A DNA stretch of 19,770 nucleotides from a virus. Taxonomy: Duplodnaviria > Heunggongvirae > Uroviricota > Caudoviricetes. The notes beneath the pieces are model-generated. The model had not been told where the DNA came from. It did not search any database and was given only the letters and a program-made list of their open reading frames with translations. Location: the IMG/VR virus record IMGVR_UViG_2695420763_000003; one strand, given 5' to 3'. Shown piece by piece: positions 5,046 through 10,318 of the stretch. The translations under genes were made by a program, and so were the position numbers. How positions within the stretch are numbered: position 1 is the stretch's first letter; every line of letters begins with the position of its first letter.

Positions 5046-6896
5046 TTATGCTGCCGGTGCATTTATCTCCAGCATCAGACTTTCTATCTCAACGCCATAC
5101 GCTGCATTTTTTGTAACATCCGTCAGCGTCAGCGCATTCAGTCCCAGTGTCAGACTGTCTTTTATAACCTGGAATGCCGGGCCAGCCACTCCATTCAGTT
5201 TCGGAGTAACCGTGGCACTGCCGGCGGTGAACACCAGCTCCAGCGTCTGCCAGTCGTTACCGTAATCGCCGAACTCCCCCAGCTTCGTGTTTCCGGCTTT
5301 CCTGTGATGCATCAGATTCACTCTGCCGTCAGTGGTCTGAGTGAAGTACGACATCAGGAACGGATTACCGGTACCCGTCATCGCCACACCATCAGGAACG
5401 GGAGCATCCGTATACAGATAAATCCCCAGCCCGAACTGATTGTTGGTCAGTGCGCCTGACAGGCGGAACTTACAGGTCAGTCTGCCGCCCTGTGTCAGCA
5501 GGGTAATTGCGTCATCCACCGGATGCGTCAGGGACCAGGTTTTATTGCTCTGCTTGGTGATCTTAAATACACCATCTGACAACTGAATTCCGCCATCCTT
5601 AATGCTCCAGCCCTGCGCAGCAGCCTCTCCGGCTGCCGGCAGCAGGGAGATTGTGCGAACGGACGTATCTGCAGACGGACCCGATGGCGTGTTGCCGCCG
5701 GGCGAGGGTTTGATTTCCGGTGCCTTACCACTGATGAAGGCTGAGGTGCGCCCGGCTGCGTTCAGAATAGCGGTTGCCAGACGATCCGGAATAATGCTCC
5801 TGCGCGCCCATGAACTGAAATGTGTCGGGCGGTTTGATGATACCTGGTTTCCATTCGTTCTCGATGCCGCACCGTAATATCCTGATGCCGGAATATCCGG
5901 ATCTTCTGCCGGCGCGTTAGTGGCGGTATTGACGCCGTTACCGTCTGTCATGAAGGGCACAAAATAAACGCCCTCACTCTCCCTGTTTTTGTACGCCCCG
6001 TAAATGGTGTTGTACTGGGTGCCGTAGGTATTTTTCCAGTAATACGTCGTGTCACCACAAATCCACGGCACATCTGCAGCACTGCCACCATGGCACTGCG
6101 CGTTAAACACGGAGAGGTCAGCACGAAACTGTGTCAGCATGGCTGTAAACAGCGCAGGTTGCTGTGCGTGGGTGGCGGCGCTCATGTCAAACTCTCCCTG
6201 CATCCAGCACACCGCCAGCAACACATTTTTCGGGTTCTTCTGTAATGCAGCTTTGGTGCGCGCAATCAGGTCCTGATATAACGGTTTACCCACACCCCAG
6301 CGCGCCGAATCCTGGCTGGCCCCCGTGTCCGCACTGAATGTCCCCTCCGCGCCCTGGGTAAATGCCGAACCACCACGACAGCATGGTACCAGCAGGATCC
6401 CCGCGTTATTCGGGATATACGGGAGCAGTTTTTTGGCAATATGTAAACCCTGGCCGACACAGCCGTACTGCCCTTTGCTCAGGTCTGCCTTCGGATGATT
6501 CAGCGTACTCATATCCTGCACATCATGCAGGCAGTGGTCGGCCGGAATAATATCGTTATATCTGCAGGCAGCCCCACCCGGCGTCACTGTACTGCGGCGC
6601 GCCAGCTGTTTAATGCGCGGATCCGGAGCATCGTATGAATCCGGCAGCGGAAGCCCTTCACCGTAAGCCATGGCATTGGATTGCCCGGCCAGTACGATGA
6701 CGTAGTACCAATCCGGCTCAGTTGCACCACTGACCACCACATCACCTTCTGCTGTAATCGCCTGCATCAGGGTATAAGGGGTTATGGCCACCGGACTACC
6801 AAACGGCTGCCAGCCCTCTTTCAGTTTGTGTGTCAGCTTTTCCGCAAGGTCTGACGGCGACGCCGCCCTGACAACATCATAATGTTTAAATGTCAT
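5046..6896 (-). CDS. nanS-p: Prophage sialate O-acetylesterase, NanS-p type (DUF1737 N-domain + SGNH/SASA esterase + C-terminal domain)
   Basis: 616-aa ORF. The N-terminus MTFKHYDVVRAASPSDLAEKLTHKLKEGWQPFGSPV is DUF1737-like. VIVLAGQSNAMAYGEG carries the GQSN motif of SGNH/SASA esterases. The C-terminal ~200 aa are Gly/Thr-rich and beta-rich. Position between Q and S matches nanS-p genes of Stx and related prophages. Confidence 0.8.
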   Translation of the reverse strand: MTFKHYDVVRAASPSDLAEKLTHKLKEGWQPFGSPVAITPYTLMQAITAEGDVVVSGATEPDWYYVIVLAGQSNAMAYGEGLPLPDSYDAPDPRIKQLARRSTVTPGGAACRYNDIIPADHCLHDVQDMSTLNHPKADLSKGQYGCVGQGLHIAKKLLPYIPNNAGILLVPCCRGGSAFTQGAEGTFSADTGASQDSARWGVGKPLYQDLIARTKAALQKNPKNVLLAVCWMQGEFDMSAATHAQQPALFTAMLTQFRADLSVFNAQCHGGSAADVPWICGDTTYYWKNTYGTQYNTIYGAYKNRESEGVYFVPFMTDGNGVNTATNAPAEDPDIPASGYYGAASRTNGNQVSSNRPTHFSSWARRSIIPDRLATAILNAAGRTSAFISGKAPEIKPSPGGNTPSGPSADTSVRTISLLPAAGEAAAQGWSIKDGGIQLSDGVFKITKQSNKTWSLTHPVDDAITLLTQGGRLTCKFRLSGALTNNQFGLGIYLYTDAPVPDGVAMTGTGNPFLMSYFTQTTDGRVNLMHHRKAGNTKLGEFGDYGNDWQTLELVFTAGSATVTPKLNGVAGPAFQVIKDSLTLGLNALTLTDVTKNAAYGVEIESLMLEINAPAA

Positions 6897-6939
6897 TATT
6901 CCTCCCGGCCGGGATAGTGTATTAAATCAGATATGGAGT

Positions 6940-6984
6940 GGGCTGTAGTCCGGAAGCCTGAATGACACACGGGGACTACAGCCC
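6940..6984. repeat. Perfect 12-bp inverted repeat (stem-loop) in the 5' leader of the esterase gene
   Basis: GGGCTGTAGTCC (6940-6951) and GGACTACAGCCC (6973-6984) separated by 21 nt, about 45 nt upstream of the ATG at 6896. No adjacent T-run. Confidence 0.6.
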
Positions 6985-7079
6985 AAGAAATGAAGAAGGC
7001 CACGCAGTTGCGCAGCCTGATAAACCCTGGTTAAAATCCACACGATAACAACACAACAATATCAGTATCTCATGCTATT

Positions 7080-7105
7080 GCCCGAACCCATTCGGGCATT
7101 TTTTA
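7080..7105 (+). terminator. Plus-strand intrinsic terminator
   Basis: GCCCGAA-CCCA-TTCGGGC (7-bp stem) followed by ATTTTTT. Confidence 0.45.
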
Positions 7106-7110
7106 CCCAT

Positions 7111-7141
7111 AAAAAATGCCCCTCCGGAGAGGGGCATTTTT
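7111..7141. terminator. Bidirectional intrinsic terminator
   Basis: AAAAAA-TGCCCCTC-CGGA-GAGGGGCA-TTTTT: 8-bp GC-rich stem with an A-run on one side and a T-run on the other. Confidence 0.55.
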
Positions 7142-7338
7142 GCATGCACATTCTTTTTCTTGCATGGTGCCGGGTGCCTCCCGGTGAATTCAGTATCAGC
7201 ACCTGAATCCGCGATTATCACATATACCTACTTGCTGATTGCCCCTCCGCACAGGGGGATTCACCATGCAGTAGTATTTTTAATAAACAGCAAATAAAAA
7301 AATCAAGCATTATGCAGGCTGTTTCTTTTTATCACCGG

Positions 7339-7470
7339 CTACAGCAATACCACAATGCCGCAGACCAGCACCCCATCCGCCAGCACCGACATGATTCTGC
7401 TGGTGAAATCCACCATCACCACCAGAAACAGCAGGAGTGCAGCCACAGCCAGGCGCAGTTTTACCGTCAC
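7339..7470 (-). CDS. Putative 43-aa hydrophobic small protein, start overlapping the stop of the TerB-like frame
   Basis: GTG at 7470..7468 overlaps TGA at 7469..7467 (GTGA). Translation is VTVKLRLAVAALLLFLVVMVDFTSRIMSVLADGVLVCGIVVLL, a single predicted TM helix. Below the ORF-track length cutoff. Expression is unproven. Confidence 0.3.
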   Translation of the reverse strand: MTVKLRLAVAALLLFLVVMVDFTSRIMSVLADGVLVCGIVVLL

Positions 7471-7960
7471 AGGTGATTCTCCAGACGAAGACCCAGAACA
7501 CCGGCAATCTCTTCCAGCACCTTGCGCTCTTCCGGCTCAATTTCGCCGTCTGCCTCCGCAATGGCCACCGCCACATCCAGCACATCTTCCGCTTCACGCG
7601 TATCGTGTTTCACATCCTCGATCTCACGTAACGCCGCACGACGACCAATTTTAAAGTTCGTATCCAGCTGACCGATAATGGTTGCGCTAATCGCATTAAT
7701 TTCTGACGTAAACGCGGACAGCGCAGGCTGATTACGCAGTACCTGTTCGATCTTCGCTTTCTAGGAAGCCTCACATTCACCATCTGCACAGGCCACCAGG
7801 TAGGCAGCATTAATAACCGCCTGTGCCAGATCGCGTTTCTCAAACTTTCCTTTTTCCGGTTAACGTGACACACCAATAACTCTTGTCGAAAAAGCCAGCA
7901 AGCTGAAAGACCGGTATTCACAACCACCAGCGCGTTTACTGTACTGGCGTGATTTCAGTC
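7467..7960 (-). pseudogene. Degraded TerB-family (tellurite-resistance-like) gene
   Basis: Minus-strand segments translate to ...AGFFDK..., ...PEKGKFEKRDLAQAVINAAYLVACADGECEAS, then in-frame TAG (7761-7763), then KAKIEQVLRNQPALSAFTSEINAISATIIGQLDTNFKIGRRAALREIEDVKHDTREAEDVLDVAVAIAEADGEIEPEERKVLEEIAGVLGLRLENHL*. These segments show TerB-like ADG and EEK motifs. They are broken by an in-frame TAA (7860-7862), the TAG, and at least one frameshift near the N-terminus. No Met-initiated intact ORF remains. Confidence 0.5.
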
Positions 7961-7990
7961 ATAAAAAAACCCGCCTGGCGACGGGTGTAA
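7961..7990 (-). terminator. tR'-like intrinsic terminator of the short pR' leader RNA
   Basis: Minus-strand RNA ACCCG-UCGCCAGG-CGGGU followed by UUUUUUUAU, about 40-60 nt downstream of the predicted pR' start. Confidence 0.6.
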
Positions 7991-8033
7991 AAAATCTTCT
8001 AACGTCAGGCATAAAACGCCCATCGTTAGGGCA

Positions 8034-8061
8034 AATTTACCACAGATTCGGGAAAAATCAA
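8034..8061 (-). promoter_or_regulatory. Late promoter pR' with adjacent qut-like region
   Basis: Minus-strand TTGATT (-35, 8061..8056), 16-nt spacer, TAAATT (-10, 8039..8034). The segment GGTAAATTTGCCCTAACGATGGG closely matches the lambda pR' -10/start region GGTAAATTTGACTCAACGATGGG as recalled. It lies directly downstream of Q. Confidence 0.65.
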
Positions 8062-8066
8062 CAAAG

Positions 8067-8888
8067 CTATCTGGTCACCTTTTTCAGTTGTTGTTCTGCC
8101 CATGCTTCTTCAATATCAAACTGCACCACCAGCGTATCGTAAAAACGTTTAACTGTTTTTTTCCATGTATCAAGAGATATGGCATCGGTTACATTACATA
8201 TGGCATTAAATGCCTCCGTTGAAGGTAATCTTTCATAGCCACGACCACCACAACGCTGGCAGTCTCTGATAACAGGCATACCACGTTTTACCGACTCTTC
8301 ACGATGAATGGCAACACCGCGCCCACGACAATCTTTACAGGCAGTGGATACCTCTCCCTTCCCTCCACACTCCGGACAGGCAACTTTTACCACCTCCCTG
8401 ACTTTTTTCCATTCCTCCCAGTAAGACGGATACACGCCTTTTGTGCACTTTGCCCACACTGGCGGCTTACCATCCGGATACTGGATCTTGTTTGTAAAAA
8501 CCTCGCTTTCAATAAATTTTTTTCCGTGACAACAGGGGCACTGTTTTTTGCTCGCCGCGCTACGGGCATAATCTTCAAACGCATACGAAGCCATAATACG
8601 CATCACTGCCGGTTTTATTTCTGCCGGGAGTTTTCTTAACGCCGCCACGCGATCACACCGACTGAGTGCATATTCTGTCAGCAATTCTGTTGCCCGCTCT
8701 CTGTCATTCATACTAATGCCCATTTTCCCAAGGAACGCAGAAAACCCCATCTCAGCCCAATTCTGTGTCATGCCCTGCGCGGCCATCACATCAGTGATAC
8801 TCAGCGTATCTTTCGACGTTGAGGCCGATGCATCAGTCAGGCCGGGGGATTTTGGGGAGTAGTATTTCGGTAAATCTTCCAGTTTCAT
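8067..8888 (-). CDS. Q: Late-gene antiterminator Q (Qin quuQ-like, 273 aa)
   Basis: Sits between rusA and pR'. The N-terminus MKLEDLPKYYSPKSP... resembles Qin-type Q as recalled. Contains four CxxCxGxG-like motifs (CPCCHGKK, CPECGGKG, CKDCRGRG, CQRCGGRG). Start overlaps the rusA stop (ATGA). Confidence 0.8.
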   Translation of the reverse strand: MKLEDLPKYYSPKSPGLTDASASTSKDTLSITDVMAAQGMTQNWAEMGFSAFLGKMGISMNDRERATELLTEYALSRCDRVAALRKLPAEIKPAVMRIMASYAFEDYARSAASKKQCPCCHGKKFIESEVFTNKIQYPDGKPPVWAKCTKGVYPSYWEEWKKVREVVKVACPECGGKGEVSTACKDCRGRGVAIHREESVKRGMPVIRDCQRCGGRGYERLPSTEAFNAICNVTDAISLDTWKKTVKRFYDTLVVQFDIEEAWAEQQLKKVTR

Positions 8889-9271: not shown

Positions 9272-10318
9272 TTACCCGAGCACGCCGGTTGCAAAGGCGT
9301 GATCAAGAAAACGAAAAATTAAATCAACCTGGGAACCATGCTTTTCTTCAAATGCCAGCGGATCAGCATGAAGTTCGTTGTGATGCTCCCGACACAACGG
9401 TAGCGTGAAAATATCGTGGGCTTTTGTCCCTATTCCGCCCTGACCATGACCAATCAGGTGATGGGGATCGTCGGCTGGCTTACCACAACACGCACACGGC
9501 TGTGTCTTTACCCAGCGTGTGTATTTCTCATTTACCCAGCGGCGACGTTTAGGTCGCTTCATTAAAGATTCCGGAGACTCCGGATCAACAGCAATGCTGA
9601 CCACCGTCTTTTCCTGTGGCGGGTTTTGCTGGTGGGCGTGAGGCAGCGGCGCAAGATTTTTTGTGCGCTGCTTCAGTATGCTGGTGGCGGTCGGTTCTCC
9701 CGGTATGATGTCGCTTTCGCGGTACACCGGGCGGATTTTTTCCGCACGTAATCCCAGCGAACGACGCAATACTGCCTCCGGTAGCGCGTCCGCCACCTGA
9801 TTGCAGACAGCCCACCAGGATAATTCAGCCAGCGATAATTCCCGCTCCTGCGTGCCATTCATTGCATGGCGTATGACGTCAATCATCCATGCTGACAGGT
9901 TTTGGTGAGCAAGTTGCCCGAGTGATTCGGAAGTCTGGTCACGCAGCTGGTTGTCGCAGTGCCAGCACAACACCATCGCGCCGGTACCGTAACGATGTAT
10001 GACGGTTTCACTGTGATGGTAGTCACCATGAGGCCACTGGCAGGATTTGACATGACGCAGGAGCCAGTCAGACAGTGCACCAGCACCGCCTGCAGCGCGA
10101 ATCACCCGTTCGTTTCTGAAAAATGGCAGTAATGATTTATCTTCCGCCAGCGGCTGGCGAACGGCAGGAACGACCCCGGACGACAGATTACGCATGCTTT
10201 TCGGTTCAGGCTCCACCAGCACTCGAGGGTTATGAAATACCTGCATGGATTCACGGCCCGGCTTAACGATCACCAGCCCGAGTTCCGGTACCAGAACAGG
10301 TCGAAGTAATACCCGCAC
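9272..10318 (-). CDS. ydfU: DUF968-family protein with C-terminal HNH-like Cys/His motif (Qin YdfU-like)
   Basis: 348-aa MRVLLRPVLVPELGLVIVKPGRES... ending ...CACCGKPADDPHHLIGHGQGG...CREHHNELH. Matches my recollection of Qin YdfU. GTG start. Confidence 0.75.
   Translation of the reverse strand: MRVLLRPVLVPELGLVIVKPGRESMQVFHNPRVLVEPEPKSMRNLSSGVVPAVRQPLAEDKSLLPFFRNERVIRAAGGAGALSDWLLRHVKSCQWPHGDYHHSETVIHRYGTGAMVLCWHCDNQLRDQTSESLGQLAHQNLSAWMIDVIRHAMNGTQERELSLAELSWWAVCNQVADALPEAVLRRSLGLRAEKIRPVYRESDIIPGEPTATSILKQRTKNLAPLPHAHQQNPPQEKTVVSIAVDPESPESLMKRPKRRRWVNEKYTRWVKTQPCACCGKPADDPHHLIGHGQGGIGTKAHDIFTLPLCREHHNELHADPLAFEEKHGSQVDLIFRFLDHAFATGVLG

Follow-up and report, generated by a model that had tools for sequence, protein, structure and literature searches.

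Does a phage protein that carries four cysteine motifs of the DnaJ type contain a DnaJ domain, or is it a lambda-type antiterminator with a second zinc site? The question arises at positions 8067 to 8888 of IMG/VR record IMGVR_UViG_2695420763_000003, a 19,770-nucleotide (nt) stretch of viral DNA (Caudoviricetes) that is called the window throughout, where the listing of open reading frames (ORFs) gives a single ORF on the minus strand encoding 273 amino acids (aa) plus stop. We consider it likely that the product is the late-gene antiterminator Q of a lambdoid Escherichia coli prophage, belonging to a long-form subgroup of the lambda Q family with two tandem Cys4 sites; this degree of confidence applies jointly to the Q identity, the lambda-like mechanism, and the tandem two-zinc model. 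The long form adds a second pair of motifs to the lambda-type finger without forming a DnaJ domain. The window protein is an ordinary, catalogued family member, and both it and its matches to the DnaJ motif profile PF00684 are already in public databases, where such motif matches are precomputed; what is gained is a clearer structural reading and not a new kind of system. The one structural feature that lacks characterization, an extra cysteine module, is common to most of the Q family.

Family membership, anatomy, and cysteine conservation

Profile searches place the window protein in the lambda Q family. It scores 168.1 bits (E = 4.7e-50) against PF03589 (Antiterm), whose cut-off is 26.7 bits, matches phrog_127 ("anti-termination protein Q-like") at E = 1.8e-112, and finds lambda Q chains in the PDB at E = 9e-41 (7ubm); the label "Q protein" given by a first-pass annotation of the DNA was therefore correct. 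The fold agrees. An AlphaFold2 model of the whole protein (139-sequence alignment, no templates; mean predicted local distance difference test score [pLDDT] of 90.2, predicted template-modeling score [pTM] of 0.77) has lambda Q as its sole significant Foldseek match in the PDB, the best being 7ubn_Q, the NusA-containing "engaged" state (E = 3.6e-15; target template-modeling score [TMt], 0.82). We assign the protein to the lambda Q family because of these profile, PDB, and model matches, together with the position of the gene, the retention of polymerase-contact residues, and a downstream regulatory layout that is recognized by sequence only. In this model, residues 31 to 55 fold as two helices (31 to 44 and 46 to 55), and the best match is the "engaged" 7ubn and not free lambda Q, in which the corresponding segment is disordered.

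The proper structural comparators are lambda Q structures 4MO1 and 7UBJ to 7UBN. Phage 21 Q, whose published structure the first-pass annotation had put forward for this purpose, was rejected as a comparator because Q21 belongs to an unrelated family without structural similarity to lambda Q (PMC9388147). Q21 (PF06530) and Q82 (PF06323) have the same biological role and gene position but resemble the lambda family in neither sequence nor structure (PMC9388147), and neither profile matched the window protein.

The genomic setting is that of a Q gene. Similar DNA is present in 3,271 of 5,426 complete E. coli genomes, where RefSeq names the product "antitermination protein" and places it after the DUF968 and RusA genes. 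Replication genes lie upstream of Q in the prophage, and a TerB pseudogene, DUF3927, a SASA esterase, holin, lysozyme, and terminase follow downstream. An identical protein is encoded as quuQ in the Stx2a-converting phage Stx2_EH1910, where a methylase gene, three tRNA genes, and stx2AB come next. The L-Stx2a phage of strain EH1910 is the sole exception to an otherwise conserved Q among O145:H28 L-Stx2a phages (preprint 10.1101/2024.03.06.583675).

Relative to lambda Q, the window protein is homologous over the entire lambda Q length (~40% identity in tblastn). Residues 1 to 113 align with lambda Q 1 to 113 without gaps (84.5 bits), and residues 182 to 273 align with lambda Q 116 to 207. The two proteins share the nozzle segment, the body with its helix-turn-helix, the two-motif zinc-ribbon arm, the gene position, and the layout of -10 element, AACGAT, and terminator downstream; they differ in that lambda Q has 207 aa and one Cys4 site, whereas the window protein has 68 further residues, two more motifs, and a long hairpin (Table 1). 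The added residues carry motifs 1 and 2 and directly follow the segment RSAA, where the arm leaves the body. In lambda Q, the RSAA segment contacts the beta' zinc-binding domain of RNA polymerase, L202 and T206 contact the flap-tip helix, and the arm rotates by ~75 degrees at the body-arm hinge upon DNA binding (PMC9388147). L268 and T272 of the window protein are identical to lambda L202 and T206, and R109, S110, and A111 are at least 90% conserved in an alignment of 139 homologues (26 to 95% identical to the window protein; two short forms and 137 long forms), which underlies all conservation counts given here. The cysteines of motifs 3 and 4 align with lambda Q C118, C121, C144, and C147, which coordinate the zinc of the lambda arm (residues 114 to 152), a type I shuffled zinc ribbon (PMC9388147). 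The lambda Q finger reads CRDCHGTG...CGRCKGVG, and lambda Q alone matches PF00684 (DnaJ_CXXCXGXG) at 23 bits. Because the lambda finger is itself two such motifs, the DnaJ-like motif is a property of the whole family.

The same architecture as in the window protein recurs in phi80 Q (gp17), itself a studied protein, in other long forms such as mEp237 Q, and in quuQ of Stx2_EH1910. Phi80 Q, of 269 aa, has its motifs at C115, C169, C182, and C207, a homologous hairpin (FTNKVSYPWGKPPYW...), and a PR' promoter and Q site that are annotated. It differs from the window protein in overall sequence (~40% identity) and in having a CxC version of motif 3, and hairpin tips vary among the lineages.

All four CxxCxGxG-like motifs reported in the first-pass annotation are present as written in the translation, beginning at residues 117, 171, 184, and 210 and thus spanning residues 117 to 217, the middle to C-terminal part of the protein. 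Motifs 2, 3, and 4 fit the strict CxxCxGxG pattern and motif 1 reads CxxCxGxK. With ~0.002 strict motifs expected per protein at this protein's own Cys and Gly content, a chance origin is excluded. Absence of the motifs from orthologues, named in that annotation as one finding that would speak against its reading, was looked for, and the motifs proved to be present in orthologues (Table 1). The glycines that follow the cysteines of motifs 1 and 2 are also kept, down to 26% identity, and motif 3 is CxC instead of CxxC in many lineages. Spacing is constant at 9 residues between C174 and C184 and is 22 residues between C187 and C210 in all but 3 of the 139 homologues; 10 to 59 aa separate C120 from C171, and length variation is confined to that stretch. 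In compact homologues, motifs 1 and 2 are fourteen residues apart. Relative to lambda Q, these two motifs are gained or lost jointly, as one contiguous block.

Among 33 full-length family representatives (50%-identity clusters), 28 have all four motif positions and 4 have two, and the lambda Q cluster is one further short form. Lambda Q, with its single finger, is thus a minority short form of the Q family, and it is with lambda Q that all structural and mechanistic work on this family has been done, although 28 of the 33 representatives carry the extra module. A literature search on zinc together with lambda Q or phi80 yielded nothing beyond lambda Q, Q21, and unrelated papers, and none of these described a second zinc site in long-form Q proteins; the coverage of the search was incomplete, and so the second site is not claimed here as undescribed.

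Predicted fold of the insertion and pairing of the motifs

In the AlphaFold2 model, the elements of the arm follow one another in the order strand 114-116, motif 1, strand 125-136, a loop with two short helices, strand 159-170, and motif 2, continuing with strand 179-181, motif 3, strand 192-194, helix 196-202, strand 207-209, and motif 4. Strands 125-136 and 159-170 are 12 residues long each (DSSP on the AlphaFold2 models). Because no other long strand is available for pairing, these two must form a hairpin, and motifs 1 and 2 therefore meet at the hairpin base, an arrangement that matches a zinc ribbon. A separate AlphaFold2 model of residues 108 to 224 (pLDDT, 83.7) superposes on the lambda Q arm over 41 to 43 columns with a root-mean-square deviation (rmsd) of 1.4 to 3.4 Å and a probability of 1.0. 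The insertion itself has no structural relative in the PDB in Foldseek searches with the isolated arm and the whole model, and a Foldseek search of BFVD returned nothing informative for it, only small uncharacterized phage proteins of 65 to 113 aa at E > 0.03. Some of the latter (e.g., A0A1B1INS8 and A0A292GLC4) match ~70 columns of the model with a probability of 1.0 and an rmsd of 2.6 to 5.6 Å, and they could represent free-standing mini-proteins of the zinc-ribbon type, related to the Q arm.

Conservation and AlphaFold2 topology lead us to infer a second zinc ribbon, built from motifs 1 and 2, that holds the 12+12-residue beta-hairpin together at its base. Two zinc centres, which the first-pass annotation proposed in place of the one of lambda Q, are likely, given the conservation of eight cysteines, the joint presence or absence of motifs 1 and 2, and the AlphaFold2 topology; the sites are better described as tandem ribbons than as the nested pairs of DnaJ. 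The predicted pairing, motif 1 with 2 and motif 3 with 4, draws on topology and homology. It is favored because motifs 3 and 4 bind zinc in the solved lambda Q structures, because motifs 1 and 2 appear and disappear jointly, as a single unbroken block, and because all length variation sits between them.

Several points weigh against this arrangement. AlphaFold2 models contain no metals, the metal (Zn or Fe) is not readable from the sequence, and the pairing is taken from topology and homology. The single zinc site of anti-TRAP (RtpA; 2BX9) consists of two consecutive DnaJ-type motifs 14 residues apart. Motifs 2 and 3 of the window protein are 13 residues apart, near that spacing, and a site formed by motifs 2 and 3 is geometrically possible. 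Alignments to DnaJ are ambiguous as well, because the motif is repeated: Pfam sets motifs 2, 3, and 4 on DnaJ motifs 1 to 3, whereas the PDB profile search sets motifs 2 and 3 on DnaJ motifs 3 and 4. Finally, the role of the insertion is one that we infer. As for anti-TRAP, its likeness to the window protein consists of weak, subthreshold matches to motifs 2 and 3 (E = 0.03 to 0.15), and its 14-residue spacing equals that between motifs 1 and 2 in compact Q homologues; it differs in being a 53-aa protein of unrelated function.

Hairpin tip and competing accounts of the module

The stem of the hairpin is conserved in sequence (FIExxVFTxK and VREVxxV), and six unrelated types of tip occur among relatives that are 55 to 100% identical to the window protein. 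Three of these relatives (P0028, P0030, and P0090) are 95 to 97% identical over residues 1 to 116 and 80 to 83% identical over residues 171 to 273, with 0 to 9% identity in the tip. At the DNA level, identity is 5 to 31% in the tip versus roughly 80 to 100% in the 5' flank. Judged by these alignments, the tip variation appears to be cassette replacement. Tip types A, B, D, and F all stand upstream of the same promoter spacer, TTTCC(C/G)GAAT(CT/TC)GTG. Because four unrelated tips share one spacer, the tip does not choose the Q-binding element, and we rejected it as the determinant of specificity for that element. Given that RNA polymerase is conserved, a hypervariable tip is either neutral in function or turned toward something variable. 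It is conceivable, if unlikely, that the second zinc ribbon presents a rigid beta-hairpin whose rapidly exchanged tip cassette serves as a specificity or evasion surface. If so, the tip might contact or escape a factor of the host or of a rival prophage whose target is Q or Q-modified RNA polymerase; alternatively, it might adjust the efficiency of loading, and so the output of late genes and Shiga toxin, independently of recognition of the Q-binding element.

The same observations bear on a possible role of the inserted module as a third element that reads DNA and widens or alters the recognition of the Q-binding element. Its place at the base of the DNA-contacting arm, its net charge of about +5, and a PR' spacer that is unlike that of lambda would all suit such a role. 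We nevertheless regard it as distinctly improbable, since unrelated tips share a nearly identical PR' spacer and the variable part therefore does not read the site; what this would leave to the module is possible contact with the DNA backbone through the conserved knuckles or the stem.

In the DnaJ cysteine-rich domain, motif 1 pairs with motif 4 and motif 2 with motif 3, one pair nested within the other. That the window protein contains a true domain of this type, with nested pairs, a V-shaped fold, and perhaps a chaperone-like or thiol-active function, is in our judgment very unlikely. The resemblance to DnaJ noted in the first-pass annotation is real at the level of motif type: four CxxCxGxG zinc-knuckle repeats (three strict, one CxxCxGxK) and two expected Cys4 sites are shared with DnaJ/Hsp40 proteins (PF00684; 1EXK and 1NLT), PF00684 matches at E = 4e-7, TIGR02349 (DnaJ_bact) at E = 5.6e-6, and a profile of the arm finds the cysteine-rich domain of E. 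coli DnaJ (1exk) at E = 1.5e-5. The 13-residue spacing between motifs 2 and 3 could also support one site. The resemblance does not extend to the domain, however. The PF00684 score of 30.6 bits is below the gathering cut-off of 32.7 bits, and the best stretch covers only motifs 2 to 4 (profile positions 1 to 52 of 65). DnaJ structures gave no significant Foldseek match (E = 0.97 to 3.8, TM score of at most 0.33, rmsd > 10 Å; the best had E = 0.97, TM score 0.33, and rmsd 10.5 Å), and family profile searches of the window protein found neither a J domain nor a DnaJ C-terminal domain; a chaperone context is likewise absent. In the solved lambda Q structures, the zinc site is made by motifs 3 and 4, and the corresponding region of the model superposes on it; motifs 1 and 2, for their part, are acquired or lost as a single block. 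The pairing predicted here is accordingly tandem and not nested. On the score, the absent fold match, the tandem topology, and the lack of a J domain, we rejected membership in the DnaJ domain family. A long-form Q from Serratia quinivorans (P0029) is named "chaperone protein DnaJ" in NCBI, evidently a misannotation triggered by the CxxCxGxG motifs. Within the literature library searched, no paper tied Q antiterminators to DnaJ motifs.

Binding of metal by motifs 3 and 4 only, with the cysteines of motifs 1 and 2 free or disulfide linked in a metal-free hairpin, is a still more doubtful account. The presence of metal at the second site is a prediction, and one variant cluster of 16 member sequences (P0003) has lost motif 1. 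Against this, the four cysteines and the glycines that follow them are kept in 136 or 137 of the 137 long forms, to 26% identity, while the loop between is free to vary, and it is because of this conservation beside a freely varying loop that we read the cysteines as metal ligands. Disulfides would also be an unlikely mainstay for a cytoplasmic DNA-binding protein.

The knuckles of the CPxCG type resemble those of rubredoxin, and 105 of the 139 homologues share an extra conserved cysteine, C119. We give almost no credence to a rubredoxin-like iron or redox-sensing site at motifs 1 and 2 that couples late genes to oxidative stress, since no rubredoxin match appeared in any family or structure search of the window protein and the homologous lambda Q site binds Zn (PMC9388147).

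Proposed mechanism, late-promoter module, and variant homologues

By homology, the antitermination activity of the window protein would be that of lambda Q. The helix-turn-helix body and the zinc-ribbon arm would bind the Q-binding element within the PR' spacer, and Q would load onto RNA polymerase paused by sigma at AACGAT. The N-terminal segment of Q would then refold as a nozzle on the RNA-exit channel, and the polymerase would pass the terminator into the lysis and late genes; in Stx2_EH1910, readthrough promoted by the identical Q would extend into stx2. In the tandem model, motifs 3 and 4 are, by homology to solved structures, the lambda Q zinc ribbon, and motifs 1 and 2 would make a second Cys4 zinc site at the body-arm hinge. 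This second site is most likely structural, holding a rigid hairpin beside the surface through which the arm contacts RNA polymerase, and the module may serve to brace the hinge, or it may enlarge the polymerase-facing surface. Because the insertion sits at the hinge that rotates by ~75 degrees and adjoins the residues that touch the beta' zinc-binding domain, it could change Q loading. In phage Stx2_EH1910 of E. coli O145:H28, stx2a is under the control of an identical Q, and differences in Q architecture may thus bear on toxin output.

The putative late promoter directly follows the Q stop codon, with six bases between the -10 element and AACGATGGG (from 8027). For comparison, lambda PR' consists of TTGACT, 17 nt, TAAATT, six bases, and AACGATGGG, and the annotated promoter and Q site of phi80 follow this layout too. 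A generic promoter scan did not report PR' here (8 of 12 consensus matches), and the promoter was assigned through alignment with lambda and phi80. It differs from lambda PR' in its spacer and hence in the Q-binding element, and the terminated leader RNA would be shorter than that of lambda, at ~65 nt, as the terminator lies ~65 nt downstream of the inferred start. The pause element is given its role in Q loading on the basis of PMC9388147. As far as nucleotide patterns can tell, the arrangement appears to be the expected series of PR', Q-binding element, pause element, and tR' (Table 1).

TABLE 1 Features of the Q gene and of the putative regulatory module downstream of it, in window coordinates (all on the minus strand)
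Feature	Residues	Position (strand)	Basis or remark
N-terminal nozzle-forming segment and first half of body, ending in RSAA	1-113	8550-8888 (-)	Alignment to lambda Q
68-residue insertion between lambda residues 113 and 116, predicted second zinc ribbon	114-181	8346-8549 (-)	Alignment gap; AlphaFold2 pLDDT of 79 to 94
Motif 1, CPCCHGKK	C117, C120 (extra C119)	8517-8540 (-)	Translation; C117 and C120 kept in 136/137 long forms
Long beta-hairpin between motifs 1 and 2 (strands 125-136 and 159-170)	125-170	8379-8516 (-)	DSSP, both AlphaFold2 models
Hypervariable, cassette-like hairpin tip	135-160	8409-8486 (-)	Comparison of homologues
Motif 2, CPECGGKG	C171, C174	8355-8378 (-)	Translation; kept in 137/137 long forms
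Homologue of lambda Q arm (zinc ribbon, lambda 116-152), with motifs 3 and 4	182-218	8235-8345 (-)	Alignment to lambda Q
Motif 3, CKDCRGRG	C184, C187	8316-8339 (-)	Translation; invariant in 139/139 homologues
Motif 4, CQRCGGRG	C210, C213	8238-8261 (-)	Translation; invariant in 139/139 homologues
Second half of body, helix-turn-helix and C-terminal helix	219-273	8070-8234 (-)	Alignment to lambda Q 153-207
PR'-like late promoter: -35 TTGATT (8061-8056), -10 TAAATT (8039-8034)		8034-8061 (-)	Sequence; in register with lambda and phi80 PR'
Presumed Q-binding element TTTCCCGAATCTGTGG in 16-nt spacer		8055-8040 (-)	Same spacer 3' of four other long-form Q genes
Putative sigma-dependent pause element AACGAT, followed by GGG		8022-8027 (-)	Hexamer identical to that of lambda PR', at same distance from -10
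Predicted intrinsic terminator, tR'-like		7962-7986 (-)	Terminator scan; stem 7986-7969, 7 pairs (5 G-C), then T7

Directly after the terminator, the minus strand of 7310-7927 holds a TerB-family (tellurite-resistance-like) gene, which an internal stop splits into ORFs 7610-7927 and 7467-7613, and then a DUF3927 gene. RefSeq annotates the same TerB pseudogene in strain CD45, and another locus (L005) has an intact 142-aa TerB gene and DUF3927 as a pair after its Q gene; TerB and DUF3927 resemble cargo that is conserved as a pair immediately behind Q and that has decayed in the window. We compared window positions 5046 to 8066 with part of Stx2_EH1910 (L001, 9822 to 13079). In that phage, a DNA methylase gene, three tRNA genes, and stx2AB fill the slot before the esterase; in the window, the slot between Q and the 616-aa SASA esterase holds the TerB and DUF3927 remnants and no stx. 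We found no tRNA genes between Q and the late genes of the window of the kind present there in Stx phages. The same Q and promoter module would therefore drive different cargo in the window and in Stx2_EH1910.

Several homologues depart from the common pattern. In P0003 (272 aa; 95% identical to the window protein), ASKNSALLSRKK replaces the residues around motif 1, so that C117 and C120 are lost while the rest is intact. The replacement looks like a short double frameshift, and the variant, as a natural knockout of motif 1, could reveal whether the second site is needed. In P0023 (272 aa, from a Logan assembly), nearly all differences from the window protein are A>V, R>C, P>L, T>I, S>L/F, and H>Y, every one of them a C-to-T change on the coding strand; the pattern suggests that this sequence was assembled from reads that were bisulfite converted or deaminated and is not a real variant. 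In P0001 (337 aa), the segment from motif 1 through the hairpin to motif 2 is duplicated internally, at the N terminus. P0205 and P0212 (319 and 326 aa) have Q motifs 2 to 4 at the C terminus, and P0212 has at residue 117 the octapeptide CWHCDNQL, which is also found in the DUF968 ORF of the window (9272-10318); this suggests a DUF968-Q fusion through a deletion across rusA. P0001, P0205, and P0212 may be rearranged prophage remnants or assembly artefacts.

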